64,000 nucleotides of DNA, from NCBI GenBank assembly GCA_046116545.1, contig CP175956.1:77219-141218 (forward strand), given 5' to 3'. The notes beneath the pieces are model-generated. The model worked only from the letters and a program-made list of their open reading frames with translations, had not been told where the DNA came from and searched no databases. The translations under genes were made by a program, and so were the position numbers. The DNA is from Candidatus Moraniibacteriota bacterium. GTDB taxonomy: Bacteria > Patescibacteriota > Minisyncoccia > Moranbacterales > GCA-2747515. Within the stretch, counting starts at the first letter, position 1. The number at the start of each line of letters is the position of its first letter. This document shows positions 33,483 through 64,000 of the stretch, one piece after another.

Positions 33483-34283
33483 TTATTTATTTATAAATAC
33501 TCTATTACTTACAATATACCCATTTAATAACATCGTTTCTTTGTTATTATATTTAATTGTACTATTCTGCATATCACAAACATATCCACCCGCTTCCTGT
33601 ATAATGATATCACTTGCGCAAATATCCCACAAGCCACTTTTATTACTTGAATTAATATACAATTCTGCATCACCTACTGCAACTTTACATATTTTAATAC
33701 CAGCTGAACCCATAGGAGCCTGTTTCATATTATTTTTCTCTGCAATTTCTTGTTCATAATCTCCCAAGTGATTTCGACTTACTAGAATTCTGCCATTTTT
33801 CATTGGTTTTTTGCTAGTTGAAATTCTTTTAGGAAGATTCCTGCCTTCGTAGGAATGACAATAGAAAAATGCGCCTTTATTTTTCTCGGCATAATATAAT
33901 TCATTTAATACTGGTGCATACACTATACCAAAAATTGACTCACCCTCCTTATTTACTAATCCAATCATTATTGAAAATTCTCCTGTTTTTTGTATGAAAT
34001 CAGATGTCCCATCTAGTGGATCAATAATCCACACAAAGTTTGCTTTTTTTCTATTTTCAAAATCATCCTCAATCTCTTCACTTAATATTGGATAATTATA
34101 TCTTGATAATTTATCCATCAAAAAATTATTCACTGCAATATCTGCCTCCGTTACAGGTGTTTTGTTTTGTTTTTGTTCTATGGTGTATTCTTTATCATAA
34201 AACTGCATGGCGATGTTACCTGCTTCAATTGCTATTTTTATTATTTCTTGGATATTTATATTGTAATTTTGCATGATTATCAT
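33483..34283 (-). CDS. cysQ: Inositol monophosphatase family protein, probably 3'(2'),5'-bisphosphate nucleotidase (CysQ-like PAP phosphatase)
   Basis: Motifs EEIEDDF...WIIDPLDGTSDF, IVYAPVLNELYYA and GSAGIKICKVAVGDAELY. Genomic context is cysC and a sulfotransferase. Confidence 0.7.
   Translation of the reverse strand: MIIMQNYNINIQEIIKIAIEAGNIAMQFYDKEYTIEQKQNKTPVTEADIAVNNFLMDKLSRYNYPILSEEIEDDFENRKKANFVWIIDPLDGTSDFIQKTGEFSIMIGLVNKEGESIFGIVYAPVLNELYYAEKNKGAFFYCHSYEGRNLPKRISTSKKPMKNGRILVSRNHLGDYEQEIAEKNNMKQAPMGSAGIKICKVAVGDAELYINSSNKSGLWDICASDIIIQEAGGYVCDMQNSTIKYNNKETMLLNGYIVSNRVFINK
33836..33860. repeat. Family-D hairpin (gattcctgccttcgtaggaatgaca) embedded in-frame in the cysQ-like CDS
   Basis: Differs by 1 nt from the copy at 45483..45508 downstream of another gene. 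Encodes HSYEGRN within the CDS. Confidence 0.6.
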
Positions 34284-34294
34284 TACTCAAACTA

Positions 34295-34320
34295 GATTCC
34301 CGCCTACGCGGGAATGACAC
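34295..34320. repeat. Family-D hairpin (gattcccgcctacgcgggaatgaca) in the 3' intergenic spacer
   Basis: Short palindrome ending in ggaatgaca. Terminator-like position downstream of cysC. Confidence 0.55.
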
Positions 34321-45482: not shown

Positions 45483-45508
45483 GATTCCTGCCTTCGCAGG
45501 AATGACAT
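45483..45508. repeat. Family-D hairpin immediately downstream of the GT gene (terminator-like)
   Basis: gattcctgccttcgcaggaatgaca. Confidence 0.6.
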
Positions 45509-59957: not shown

Positions 59958-60320
59958 TTATGCTTTTTTATTCATAACAATTCCTTTGTTAAACCCACCC
60001 CGCTTTTGACGTTTTTCATCTTGTATCCGCAATACATCTTTCTTGTCGATATTCATCACTGCACACATAGCATCAATCACCTCAAGCACATCAGCCATTT
60101 CTTCAACAATGTGTTCTGTATTATTTGCATCCCTAAGCTCACTCGCCTCCTCAACAACTTTTTTCTTCAAATATTCTAAATGTTCATCCTTATCTTTAAC
60201 TAAAAACACATCAGCATCAATACCATCATTATCCTTAATGATTCGAGGAATCTCATCCCGCACAATCTTAGGATATTCATTTTCTTCTGGAATATTTGTT
60301 TGTGTATGTGTATATTTCAT
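59958..60320 (-). CDS. MazG-like nucleoside triphosphate pyrophosphohydrolase
   Basis: EExxE-type motifs KVVEEASELRDA...EEMADVLEVIDAM. Confidence 0.6.
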   Translation of the reverse strand: MKYTHTQTNIPEENEYPKIVRDEIPRIIKDNDGIDADVFLVKDKDEHLEYLKKKVVEEASELRDANNTEHIVEEMADVLEVIDAMCAVMNIDKKDVLRIQDEKRQKRGGFNKGIVMNKKA

Positions 60321-60336
60321 AAAATTATAGAAATAA

Positions 60337-60366
60337 AACCGAGAGATAAATCTCTCGGTTTTATTG
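60337..60366 (-). terminator. Perfect hairpin downstream of dnaK
   Basis: aaaccgagagat-ttat-atctctcggttt. The minus-strand transcript continues ATTTCTATAATTTT. Confidence 0.55.
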
Positions 60367-60375
60367 TTTTAAGAC

Positions 60376-62346
60376 TTATTTCTTGTCTTCGTCTTTTTTA
60401 TCATCCTCTTTTTTCTCTTCATCAGCTTTTTCATCTGATTCATCTTCTTTTTTATCTTCTTCTACTTCAGCTTCTTTTGTTCCGTCAGCATCACACGTTC
60501 CGCCTTCACAACCGTCTTTAGCTGCGTTAGCTTCTTGAGCTGCTTTGTACAATTTTTCTCCAATTGCTTGAGCTGCTGTTGAAAGCTCTTCTGTTGCAGC
60601 TTTTACTTTTTCTGCATCAGCTTTTTCATCTTTCAATACTTCATTCAATGCTTCAACTTTTTCTTCAACAGGTTTCTTTTCTTCATCTGTCAATTTATCT
60701 CCAGCATCTTTAATTGCCTTTTCAGTTGTGAAAACAAGTGTTTCAGCTGCATTTCTGATTTCAACTGCTTCTTTCTTTTTCTTGTCTTCCTCAGCATGTG
60801 CTTCAGCATCTTTTTTCATATTCTCAACTTCTTCGTCTGACAATCCACTTGATCCTTCAATTTTAATTGATTGTTCTTTGCCAGAAGCTTTATCAACTGC
60901 CTTTACACTAAGAATTCCGTTTGCATCAATATCAAATGATACTTCAACTTGTGGAACGCCTCTTGGTGCTGGTGGAATTGAATCTAGGATAAATTTACCT
61001 AATGCCTTATTATCAGCTGCCATTTCACGTTCTCCTTGCAATACATTTATTTCAACACTTGGTTGATTGTCCATTGCAGTAGAAAATGTTTGTGATTTTG
61101 TAGCTGGAATTGTTGTATTTTTCTCAATAAGTGCCGTTCGTACACCACCCATTGTTTCGATTCCAAGTGTAAGAGGTGTTACATCTAATAGAAGAACATC
61201 TTTCACATCGCCTTGGAACACACCACCTTGGATTGCAGCACCCATTGCTACTACCTCATCAGGATTAACTGTCATATTTGGTTTTTTACCAAAGAACTCT
61301 TCAACAGTTTTTTGTACAATTGGCATACGAGTCATACCACCAACTAAGATTACCTCGTCAATATCATCTTTAGAAAATCCAGAATCCTTCAAAGCTTGTT
61401 CTGTAGGGATTAAAGTTTTCTTTACTAAATCATGTACAAGTTCCTCAAGTTTTGCACGAGTCAAAGTCATAACTAAATGTTTCGGACCTTCATCACTTGT
61501 TGTGATAAATGGTTGATTGATTTCACTTTGATCTGCAGTTGAAAGTTCGATCTTTGCTTTTTCAGCTGCTTCTTTTACTCTTTGAAGAGCAAGGTTGTCT
61601 TTTGAAATATCAATTCCTTCTGACTTTTTGAATTCATCAAGTATCCACTTAATAAGAACCTGATCAAAATCATCACCACCTAAATGTGTATCACCATGAG
61701 TTGCTTTTACTTCGATAGTATCATCACTCACTTCCAAGATTGAAACATCAAATGTTCCACCTCCAAGGTCATAAACTGCAATTTGCTCATCATTTTTCTT
61801 ATTAAATCCATAAGCAAGAGCTGCAGCTGTTGGCTCATTGATAACACGACGAACTTTCATTCCAGCAATTTCTCCAGCCTCTTTTGTTGCTTTTCTTTGA
61901 GCATCATCAAAATATGCAGGAACTGTAATTACAGTTTCTTCGATTGTTTCACCAAGCTTTTCTTCTGCATCAGCCTTAAGCTTTCCCAAAATCATAGCAC
62001 TCACTTCTTGTGGAGTATAATCTTTATCTCCCATTTTTACTTTAATGCTACCGTTATCACCTTTGACCAATTCATACGGTGATAATTTGATGTCTTCCTG
62101 CACTTCAGCATCATCAAACTTTTTACCTATAAAACGCTTGATACTGTACAAAGTATTTTCAGGATTTGTTACAGCCTGACGTTTTGCCAAAAGACCTGTA
62201 AGTCTTTCACCGTTTTTGTTTACTGCCACCATTGATGGAGTTGTTCGATTACCTTCTTTGTTTTCTACGATTTCTGGTTGACCACCTTCAACAACAGCCA
62301 TTGCTGAGTTTGTAGTTCCTAGATCGATTCCCAATATTTTTCCCAT
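60376..62346 (-). CDS. dnaK: Molecular chaperone DnaK (Hsp70)
   Basis: [30 protein letters not shown] and [18 protein letters not shown]. 656 aa. Acidic C-terminal tail. Confidence 0.95.
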
Positions 62347-62372
62347 ATTATTTTATTTAAATTAGTACCATC

Positions 62373-62400
62373 TTGTCATTCCTGCGTAGGCAGGAATCTT
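62373..62400. repeat. Family-D hairpin (gtcattcctgcgtaggcaggaatc) in the grpE-dnaK spacer
   Basis: Read from the sequence. A related tggaatgacaa lies at 62490..62510. Confidence 0.5.
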
Positions 62401-62640
62401 TCTGTAATTTCAAAGATATTTTATAATCTGTTCAAAAGATTCCGGACAATGATATTTTTTGCCAATCACTTTGTTCTTGGAAAAATATACATTTCTGGAA
62501 TGACAATTTATATATGTTACTAACTTGATTGATTAAACTAGTTATAAATTGAATATTTATCATTCTCATGAACATAGAATCCTCGCGATTAAATTCTATA
62601 TTCATTTTGAATGACAATATTCTCAATGTTTGATTATTAA

Positions 62641-63537
62641 TTATTTAAGTACAACACGTGCTGGACGTAAAACTTTTTCTCCTATTTTGTATCCAGGTTG
62701 CGCAACCTTTTCTACTTTAGGATCTTCACTTAATTCTTCTTCATCATCATGCTTCACTGCCTCCATTGTAAGTGGATCAAATTCATCTCCAACCTTGATT
62801 TCAATTCTAGTAACATTATGTTCTTCAAAAACTTTTTCCATTTGTTGTTGTATAAACATTATTCCTGTCACCCATGGATTATCCGATTCACCCTCTGGAA
62901 TATGTCCTGTAGCTGCATGAAAATTATCTAGTACTGGTAACATGTCATTTATTACTCCTTCTGCTGCATATTTTGTAAATTCTTTTTGATTTTCTGTCTG
63001 CCTTTTTTTATAGTTATCAAAATCTGCCATACATCTGTGCCAACTATCAACTGAACTTTGTGATTCTAATTTCTCAACTGCTTTTTGCACAGCATCCTTT
63101 ATCCATGACTTCACATCCTTCATCTCAAGGATTTCTTCTGCGCTTAGCCATTTATATTCTTCATGCTCCTCAGAAAGAATAACAGCACCTGCATATTTCA
63201 CTAGATAAATAGTTGTTATTCCTGTATTTGGATTTTTACTATTAGCCATAAATTCTATACCGCACAATTCTCTTCCTAGATTTTCTAAATTTATTTCAGA
63301 CTCCTCTTTTATTTCTCTATCCATTGATATAGTAAAATCAGTTTCACCAATTTCTACATGTCCACCTGGCAAATCCCATGGCCCATATTTCTTAAACCAT
63401 TCTTTATGTGCCTCAATATCATCCTTTATTTTTGAAGCTTTCATTATTAAAAATTGATTTTTATCTTCATCAAAAAATAATACTTTTTGAGATAATCTAA
63501 ATAATTGCTTTTGATTTGTTATTTTTTCTTGTGTCAT
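62641..63537 (-). CDS. grpE: Nudix hydrolase domain fused to the nucleotide-exchange factor GrpE
   Basis: N-terminal Nudix box GGHVEIGETDFTISMDREIKEESEI (G-x5-E-x7-REUxEExGU). C-terminal GrpE motifs ADFDNYKKRQ, DNF..A...H and KVLRPARVVL. One continuous 298-aa ORF. Confidence 0.75.
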   Translation of the reverse strand: MTQEKITNQKQLFRLSQKVLFFDEDKNQFLIMKASKIKDDIEAHKEWFKKYGPWDLPGGHVEIGETDFTISMDREIKEESEINLENLGRELCGIEFMANSKNPNTGITTIYLVKYAGAVILSEEHEEYKWLSAEEILEMKDVKSWIKDAVQKAVEKLESQSSVDSWHRCMADFDNYKKRQTENQKEFTKYAAEGVINDMLPVLDNFHAATGHIPEGESDNPWVTGIMFIQQQMEKVFEEHNVTRIEIKVGDEFDPLTMEAVKHDDEEELSEDPKVEKVAQPGYKIGEKVLRPARVVLK

Positions 63538-63547
63538 TTATTTTTTA

Positions 63548-64000
63548 TTAAATTATTATGAGTACAATCACTACAATTCCTCCCAATGTTTTTTTCACAA
63601 GATCTATAAGTGATTTATTTTTTTCATATTCCATATTTTTTGGACCGATGAGTGCTACTATTCCCTTTTCTCCATTTTGTTCATATTGACTCACAATCAT
63701 TGAATAATTTTCTGTCTTACTGATAGGATTTTCATCTCCTATAAATATCTTTGTCTCTCCGTCTGATAATTCGGCCATGAGATCATCACATCTTTCATCT
63801 ATATAATCCAAACCTTCAGCTAATGCACAAATTTCATCCATATTGTCTGCATCAACATTTGAAAGTAATGACTTGAGTCCACACTCTGAGAAATCATTAT
63901 TACAAGGAACTCCGCTTATTGCCACATATCCACTTAATGTTGAAAGTAATTTTGCAGTAGTACGAGTCAATCTAGAATTTTGGGCTCTCAGCTGTAATAG
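63548..64000 (-). CDS. hrcA: Heat-inducible transcription repressor HrcA, C-terminal part. The gene continues beyond the window edge.
   Basis: C-terminal motif GIVALIGPKNMEYEKNKSLIDLVKKTL, compare HrcA GVIGPTRMDYERVIPLVD. The reading frame is open through to position 64000. Confidence 0.65.
   Translation of the reverse strand, partial: LLQLRAQNSRLTRTTAKLLSTLSGYVAISGVPCNNDFSECGLKSLLSNVDADNMDEICALAEGLDYIDERCDDLMAELSDGETKIFIGDENPISKTENYSMIVSQYEQNGEKGIVALIGPKNMEYEKNKSLIDLVKKTLGGIVVIVLIII

Follow-up and report, generated by a model that had tools for sequence, protein, structure and literature searches.

A Nudix domain fused to GrpE in the hrcA-grpE-dnaK operon of a Moranbacteria clade

In the usual view, GrpE is a cofactor with a purely structural role, built from a tail, a stalk and a head. 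In a 64,000-nucleotide stretch of contig CP175956.1 (assembly GCA_046116545.1, positions 77,219 to 141,218) from a Candidatus Moraniibacteriota bacterium, hereafter the window, the gene at the grpE position of the hrcA-grpE-dnaK operon encodes a GrpE that is preceded, in the same reading frame, by a Nudix domain, and this raises the question of what such a domain is doing on a co-chaperone. The answer that we favour, and hold to be reasonably probable, is that the gene encodes a bifunctional heat-shock co-chaperone, in which a complete GrpE is joined to an active Nudix hydrolase acting on a stress nucleotide.

One reading frame encodes a Nudix domain and GrpE

The features of the fused gene are listed below, with residues numbered in amino acids (aa).

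62641-63537, minus strand: Nudix-GrpE fusion open reading frame (ORF), 298 aa, stop codon included in the span (ORF listing and Pfam)
63109-63501, minus strand: type-A Nudix domain, aa 13-143, a predicted beta-sheet sandwich with helices at aa 42-51 and 68-80
63292-63363, minus strand: near-canonical Nudix box GHVEIGE-TDFTISMD-REIKEESEI, aa 59-82 (column conservation in 120 homologues)
63028-63108, minus strand: junction, aa 144-170, C-terminal Nudix helix predicted to be continuous with the GrpE stalk helix (AlphaFold2 and alignment)
62650-63090, minus strand: GrpE domain, aa 150-296, with stalk helix, helical bundle and C-terminal beta domain (Pfam, phmmer and Foldseek)

The frame starts with an ATG and runs through 298 codons without an in-frame stop, as seen both in the ORF listing and on reading the sequence. 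Pfam assigned aa 19-144 to NUDIX (PF00293; 46.8 bits against a cut-off of 21.1, E 3.7e-12) and aa 150-296 to GrpE (PF01025; 129.1 bits against a cut-off of 25.8, E 1.6e-37), the latter match spanning profile positions 16-162 of 165. With phmmer the GrpE half matched the GrpE of G. kaustophilus (4ani, E 1.3e-16) and human GrpEL1, and with Foldseek it matched GrpEL1 chains (9blt, 9bls) and a GrpE chain (9a81). All 25 NCBIfam GrpE equivalog models listed (PRK141xx) scored below cut-off, the best being NF010738 with 95.1 bits against 137; these models are lineage-tuned, and the fusion is a divergent Patescibacteria sequence.

A preliminary description of this locus had read one uninterrupted Nudix-GrpE translational fusion within the hrcA-grpE-dnaK operon, and the ORF, the Pfam assignments and the flanking genes confirm it. 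The three peptide strings that it quoted are all present (GGHVEIGETDFTISMDREIKEESEI at aa 58-82, ADFDNYKKRQ at aa 171-180 and KVLRPARVVLK at aa 288-298), and the profile scan that it proposed places both NUDIX and GrpE above their curated cut-offs. These results show that the fused protein is a genuine GrpE joined to a genuine Nudix-fold domain.

The fusion recurs in independent assemblies and in homologues

The identical 298-aa protein was found, with the same neighbours each time, in three independent assemblies, namely the NCBI metagenome-assembled genome (MAG) GCA_008633355.1 (contig SWBY01010077) and two JGI metagenome contigs from different samples, and a further database record places it on a contig of 1.29 Mb that bears the name Candidatus Moraniibacteriota. 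Among about 5.8 billion proteins searched, 1711 matched; PF01025 and PF00293 occur together in all of the best 120, at identities from 100% down to 37%, so the same fusion that the preliminary description had proposed to look for in homologues is present throughout. The named database homologues among these 120 carry the label "GrpE" only, and since public annotations say simply "GrpE", the Nudix half is at present hidden.

In the alignment of the 120 sequences, gaps between aa 141 and 170 are confined to a single column (aa 141), and the junction residues W145, K147, A153 and R168 are conserved. A stop codon missed between the domains had been raised as a possible flaw; none is there, and the same ORF is called on the independent NCBI and JGI assemblies. 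A frameshift or hidden stop is thus ruled out by the uninterrupted ORF, by the identical protein in independent assemblies and by the two-domain homologues.

The two domains are predicted to share one rigid helix

To see how the halves might be joined, we relied on an AlphaFold2 single-chain model built from a 112-sequence alignment, which has a mean predicted local distance difference test score (pLDDT) of 93 and a predicted template modelling score (pTM) of 0.70. In this model aa 13-143 form a Nudix alpha/beta/alpha sandwich, whose predicted catalytic helix (aa 68-80) bears R74, E75, E78 and E79. A single unbroken helix, aa 144-211, is predicted to run from the C-terminal Nudix helix into the GrpE stalk and the first bundle helix, and is followed by the second bundle helix (aa 221-239) and the beta domain (aa 242-297). 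Block pLDDT values are 95-98 over aa 141-180 and 89-91 over aa 181-210. The Nudix-GrpE junction is therefore predicted to be a rigid helix and not a linker.

The disordered N-terminal tail of ordinary GrpEs is missing, and the first Nudix strand is preceded by only about 12 residues, which are poorly conserved. The N-terminal paired helix had also been described as shortened. As a statement about its length this calls for a small correction, the stalk being little shorter than normal: the predicted helix extends 27 residues (aa 144-170) upstream of the ADF(D/E)NY motif, and the helix ahead of this motif in E. coli GrpE has roughly the same extent; what stands is that the first ten or so of these residues are part of the Nudix fold.

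The catalytic positions of the Nudix half are conserved

The residues expected to bind metal or to take part in catalysis are nearly invariant among the 120 aligned homologues: G58, G59, E78, E124 and W130 are found in all 120, R74 and E79 in 119, and E65 and E75 in 112 each (Asp replacing Glu in 7 in both cases), while G81, H125 and S122 are found in 115, 114 and 104, respectively. Taken together, the catalytic and metal-binding Nudix positions are at least 93% conserved, in a domain whose mean pairwise identity is 37%, against 56% for the GrpE domain. Since these positions are near-invariant in an otherwise poorly conserved domain, selection is focused on them, which argues for catalysis and against a mere scaffold. 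The Nudix half is, judging from its sequence, probably a working pyrophosphohydrolase.

The preliminary description had called the box canonical, and this needs qualifying. All acidic and Arg positions are present; however, the box of the window protein reads G-x5-E-x8-RE-I-K-EE-S-E-I, compared with the consensus GX5EX7REUXEEXGU, so that the spacing is x8 instead of x7 and the final Gly is replaced by Glu81. A motif scan found the x8 spacing in roughly half of the 112 aligned sequences and x7 in about half, and Glu81 is shared with 4 of the 120 homologues.

The fusion belongs to the HrcA/CIRCE heat-shock operon

The genes and elements flanking the fusion are the following.

63548-64000, minus strand: 3' part of hrcA (Pfam PF01628), which runs off the window; its stop codon lies 10 nt before the fusion ATG
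62347-62640, no strand assigned: grpE-dnaK spacer of 294 nt, containing a 24-nt palindromic hairpin at 62375-62398
60376-62346, minus strand: dnaK (Hsp70), 656 aa (ORF listing; Pfam HSP70 on the same gene in L081, a contig of the same organism)
60332-60365, minus strand: terminator-like hairpin directly after dnaK, with a 15-pair stem followed by a T-rich tail

The last of these is probably the end of the operon. The hrcA-grpE-dnaK order is kept, with and without the fusion, in those relatives whose loci reach dnaK. The controlling inverted repeat of chaperone expression (CIRCE) is absent inside the window, which ends within hrcA; on contigs of the same organism that extend further (L081-L083), a perfect CIRCE, TTAGCACTC-N9-GAGTGCTAA, lies about 20 nt upstream of hrcA, and an identical perfect copy precedes hrcA in the fusion loci L001, L003, L004 and L005. 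Because a perfect CIRCE precedes hrcA, the fusion is a member of a classical HrcA/CIRCE heat-shock operon.

The grpE-dnaK spacer of the window is non-coding, unlike that of several relatives in which an ORF of 134-146 aa lies between grpE and dnaK (L001 6959-7399, L004 6903-7307, L007 6479-6883); by eye, these products look like Hsp20/alpha-crystallin small heat-shock proteins. An Rfam scan of the whole 64 kb returned no family at the gathering threshold, and no tRNA or other known RNA gene was detected; there is thus no known RNA element in the spacer.

The fusion is restricted to one Patescibacteria clade

To place the fusion among its relatives, a scan of one genome per GTDB species was used, which gave at least 587 GrpE relatives; among the best 80, which were kept, six are fusions (L001-L005 and L009) and the others ordinary GrpEs. 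In a GrpE-domain tree built by neighbour joining with 100 bootstraps, a method that at such depth leaves room for other histories, all fusions fall in one clade (bootstrap 67/100). Nested within this clade are the solo GrpEs L006, L007, L008 and L010, which have a charged low-complexity tail in place of the Nudix domain, and 99 of the 100 replicates join solo L008 to the fusion P0086 (GrpE-domain identity 76%). Since solo GrpEs are nested among fusions, the simplest reading is that the Nudix domain was gained once and lost several times. The earlier suggestion of a lineage-specific domain accretion agrees with this picture, the fusion being confined to one Patescibacteria clade that includes the nested solo GrpEs.

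Two paralogous Nudix types occur in the fusions. Of 126 typed fusions, 113, including the window gene, carry type A, and five carry type B, distinguished by a short GFE.EK insert and a box that is canonical throughout. Both types occur together in eight proteins, 445-457 aa long, in the order A-B-GrpE, and in P0058 the gene for this form sits between hrcA and dnaK; a low-confidence AlphaFold2 model of A-B-GrpE (pLDDT 70, 8-sequence alignment) served only for the order of its secondary-structure elements. Separate Nudix genes also exist: P0121 and P0124, two short top matches to the Nudix profile, are true separate genes located between hrcA and a Nudix-GrpE fusion. One such arrangement is hrcA / nudA / nudB-grpE / dnaK, with an 11-nt spacer and different frames, seen in three sequencing runs; a second is hrcA / nudA / nud-grpE. 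The preliminary description had noted that orthologues in the form of two separate genes would speak against a fusion; what we find is that the separate Nudix genes adjoin a second Nudix-GrpE fusion, and a nudA between hrcA and a fusion strengthens the Nudix-GrpE link. Most short Nudix-profile matches of 150-190 aa were rejected as stand-alone genes, being fusions broken at contig ends (P0123, P0125, P0127, P0138).

In the other loci among the 80, the type-A hidden Markov model (HMM), the type-B HMM and a regular expression for the box detected no Nudix gene at 6 kb or less from grpE, and the same tools found no further Nudix gene elsewhere in the 64-kb window. An ancestral Nudix gene adjoining a solo grpE was also considered and set aside, as no such neighbour occurs within 6 kb. 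Tandem Nudix-Nudix proteins without GrpE (260-300 aa; P0133, P0139, P0140 and many others) are among the closest type-A relatives and may be the source of the A-B arrangement.

Two observations concern individual relatives. A Cys-rich insert (CCHDEKCQDGKC, ECVDCKVDHKY) is found in the GrpE beta domain of L005, which is fused, and of L006 and L010, which are solo; it may be a metal site, and it is absent from the window protein. In L001, L003, L004, L007 and L008, DnaK is 72-86% and HrcA 47-73% identical to the window proteins; because these proteins resemble those of the Moranbacteria window, the labels Micavibrio, Fimivivens and Bdellovibrionales attached to these loci are probably wrong.

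Nudix relatives and candidate substrates

A single-sequence search of the PDB for relatives of the Nudix half returned human NUDT2 (3u53) first (E 1.2e-6), followed by the M. mazei MutT-like protein 3grn and the C. elegans diadenosine tetraphosphate (Ap4A) hydrolase, and a profile of 37 Nudix halves (A2) ranked 3grn (1e-19) ahead of NudI (2e-13), NUDT2 (2e-11), BdRppH (5e-11) and then NudG. Foldseek also placed 3grn at the top, followed by the C. elegans and human Ap4A hydrolases. Dinucleoside-polyphosphate hydrolases are thus over-represented among the nearest characterised relatives. All NCBIfam Nudix equivalogs scored far below cut-off (TIGR00586, 22.7 bits against 97.9; NF052459, 23.2 against 475), and a substrate assignment from these models was dropped for this reason. 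By sequence, the Nudix half is a small MutT-like Nudix whose membership of the diadenosine-polyphosphate (ApnA) hydrolase subfamily is not established.

Heat shock raises Ap4A levels, and Ap4A crosslinks to DnaK, GroEL and ClpB (PMC10148737). Taking into consideration (i) this rise, (ii) the crosslinking and (iii) the presence of Ap4A hydrolases among the nearest relatives, Ap4A is the most attractive candidate substrate, albeit one of low probability. A damaged or non-canonical NTP is the other candidate that we infer.

Proposed mechanism

In the mechanism that we propose, residues from about 155 to 298 would form a complete GrpE, with stalk helix, helical bundle and beta domain, and residues 13-143 a compact MutT-like Nudix pyrophosphohydrolase whose last helix would pass straight into the stalk. 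By analogy with established GrpE biology, the fusion would dimerise through stalk and bundle and drive ADP release from DnaK. As the last Nudix helix is predicted to be continuous with the stalk helix, a GrpE dimer would hold two Nudix domains at the distal tip of the stalk, near the substrate-binding domain of DnaK. In E. coli GrpE, this tip is the exit point of disordered tails, whose binding to the substrate site of DnaK promotes the release of clients, and a rise in temperature unfolds the stalk (PMC12915176).

Because the two activities are fused in a CIRCE/HrcA operon, the hydrolase would be made together with GrpE under stress, in a 1:1 ratio, and would act on a stress-generated nucleotide derivative such as Ap4A or a damaged or non-canonical NTP. 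Direct channelling of the released ADP is unlikely, since the stalk tip would lie a full stalk length from the nucleotide cleft of DnaK. A more speculative version, to which we give little credence, is that during docking the stalk tip would bring two Nudix sites up to the substrate-binding domain and interdomain linker of DnaK, where they would hydrolyse a nucleotide bound or covalently linked to DnaK or its client (Ap4A, or an AMP- or ADP-ribose-type modification). If this were true, each exchange cycle would also clear the chaperone of stress-induced nucleotide adducts, a previously unknown form of Hsp70 regulation.

Several points weigh against this bifunctional mechanism. The x8 spacing and Glu81 make the activity of the window protein itself less certain than that of its family. 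The repeated loss of the domain, together with the split-gene variants, indicates that the covalent linkage is dispensable. The Ap4A candidate has its own difficulty: ApnA hydrolases are reported (Dunn et al. 1999) to be marked by a conserved Tyr that follows the Nudix box at a distance of 16-18 residues, and this Tyr is absent from the window protein, where aa 98-100 are Ala-Asn-Ser; Tyr99 is found in only 23 of 120 relatives.

Alternative explanations

The main rival, plausible if rather unlikely, is simple co-regulation: in a reduced genome densely packed with genes, grpE would have acquired an ordinary house-cleaning Nudix enzyme, the halves working independently and the fusion merely ensuring heat-shock expression. 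This would account for the loss of Nudix without loss of GrpE in the nested L006, L007, L008 and L010 (most clearly in the L008 and P0086 pair), for the Nudix copy that can be a separate gene, and for the tandem Nudix-Nudix proteins without GrpE that are common among the domain's relatives; the Nudix domain is, moreover, predicted to sit a full stalk length (helix aa 144-211) from the nucleotide site of DnaK. However, a junction without gaps, the conserved W145, K147, A153 and R168 and the predicted single rigid helix are not what independent halves would call for, and in every arrangement seen the Nudix gene or genes lie within the hrcA-grpE-dnaK operon. The association is also specific, because about 70 other bacterial loci have no Nudix gene within 6 kb of grpE.

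That the Nudix domain is a ligand sensor appears improbable. A nucleotide alarmone bound, or slowly turned over, at the tip of the stalk would alter the stability of the coiled coil and so tune GrpE, in the manner of the E. coli thermosensor stalk. The predicted continuity of the Nudix and stalk helices would suit such a role, as would the slightly degenerate box of the window protein; the stalk is an established temperature sensor whose tails modulate the substrate-binding domain (PMC12915176), and Nudix domains act as sensors in NrtR-type regulators, one of which (3gz8) is among the structural neighbours. Yet sensor Nudix domains usually lose their catalytic residues, which here are conserved at 93% or more across the family, and the proposed sensor has no known ligand.

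An inactive structural cap or dimerisation module, standing in for the tails and for the start of the stalk at its N-terminal end, is very improbable. The solo relatives have a charged disordered tail at the same position, so that domain and tail would be interchangeable, and the box of the window protein is non-canonical; but the near-invariant R74-E75, E78-E79, E65 and E124 are hard to explain without catalysis or metal binding, and the type-B domains have a fully canonical box. The conservation of catalytic residues thus makes both the sensor and the cap less likely. Finally, the chance that an assembly or sequencing artefact joined two genes is vanishingly small: the ORF is identical in an NCBI MAG and two JGI metagenomes, at least 120 homologues have the same architecture, and their junction is free of gaps, so the fusion is not an assembly error.

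Other features of the window

33836-33859, 34295-34318 and 45483-45506, minus strand, and 62375-62398, plus strand: copies of a 24-nt palindrome (repeat search)
59958-60320, minus strand: MazG/PRA-PH-like all-alpha NTP pyrophosphohydrolase, 120 aa (PF01503, 27.8 bits)

The palindrome, GTCATTCC[T/C]GCG[A/T]AGGC[A/G]GGAATC, occurs in four copies in the window, where shuffled sequences predict none. In one copy a compensatory pair of changes, T to C and A to G, preserves the stem, and the flanks of the copies are unrelated. Two copies lie just 3' of minus-strand ORFs, and the copy in the grpE-dnaK spacer is 28 nt upstream of the start codon of dnaK; the element may be a REP-like or terminator-like hairpin.

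The MazG-like gene, past the terminator-like hairpin that follows dnaK, is a second nucleotide-cleaning enzyme beside the chaperone operon. It was rejected as part of the system, being absent from that position in the relatives L001-L012. The HrcA of the same organism has only 244-248 aa according to gene calls (L081 1136-1870, L082 3244-3990); a typical HrcA has about 340 aa, and the protein of this organism may be a shortened form. DnaK has an unusual C-terminal tail with a long Asp/Glu/Lys-rich stretch (60376-60500, minus strand). GC skew is negative in all 4-kb blocks of the window, and between 33 and 64 kb the long ORFs are nearly all on the minus strand.

Comparison with known systems

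In the literature on Nudix proteins together with GrpE, the candidate phyla radiation or the hrcA operon, we found no description of such a fusion; the single paper in which all these subjects are named treats them in unconnected places, and neither Nudix domains nor fusions come up in a review of GrpE-like factors from 2025. Nudix-GrpE is, apparently, an undescribed, clade-wide and structurally integrated combination of known domains. In this Patescibacteria/Moranbacteria clade, an enzyme that its residues mark as probably active replaces the tail that reaches the DnaK substrate-binding domain, and it is predicted to be rigidly mounted on the temperature-sensing stalk. Single, tandem, split and two-type arrangements all persist, and they therefore amount to classic fusion and neighbourhood evidence for a connection between the hydrolase and the Hsp70 cycle. 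The fusion offers a concrete system in which to test the long-standing proposal of an action of Ap4A and other stress nucleotides on DnaK, gives a context to a Nudix subfamily in reduced-genome Patescibacteria, and would surprise chaperone specialists as a testable link between hydrolysis of nucleotide derivatives and the Hsp70 cycle.

With canonical GrpE (E. coli 1DKG, G. kaustophilus 4ANI) and GrpEL1 the fusion shares the GrpE Pfam domain and the architecture of stalk, bundle and beta domain, which is predicted here, and canonical GrpE occupies the same hrcA-grpE-dnaK position under CIRCE control. The difference is at the N-terminus: where canonical GrpE has a disordered tail and the start of the stalk, the fusion has a folded enzyme domain of about 140 aa. 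The nearest relatives of that domain are the small MutT-like Nudix proteins, including the uncharacterised 3GRN, the NUDT2-type proteins (3U53, 1KTG, 5CFI), CT771, NudI and BdRppH. In contrast to these, the window domain has GrpE as its fusion partner, and a coiled-coil stalk prolongs its C-terminal helix, while the window protein has the x8 spacing and Glu for Gly, and the ApnA-type Tyr is not conserved.

Partners of a different kind are known for both halves. Anabaena All4144 is described as a GrpE to which a helix-turn-helix domain has been added (bioRxiv 10.1101/2025.04.14.648684), and is a precedent for a bacterial GrpE with an extra functional domain; that domain, however, binds DNA and is not an enzyme, and the protein belongs to another lineage. 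NrtR, in which a Nudix domain is joined to a winged helix (3GZ5/3GZ8), is likewise a Nudix fused to a functionally different partner and is a structural neighbour of the window domain. The Nudix domain of NrtR is a non-catalytic ADP-ribose sensor, whereas in the Nudix domain of the fusion the catalytic residues are conserved.

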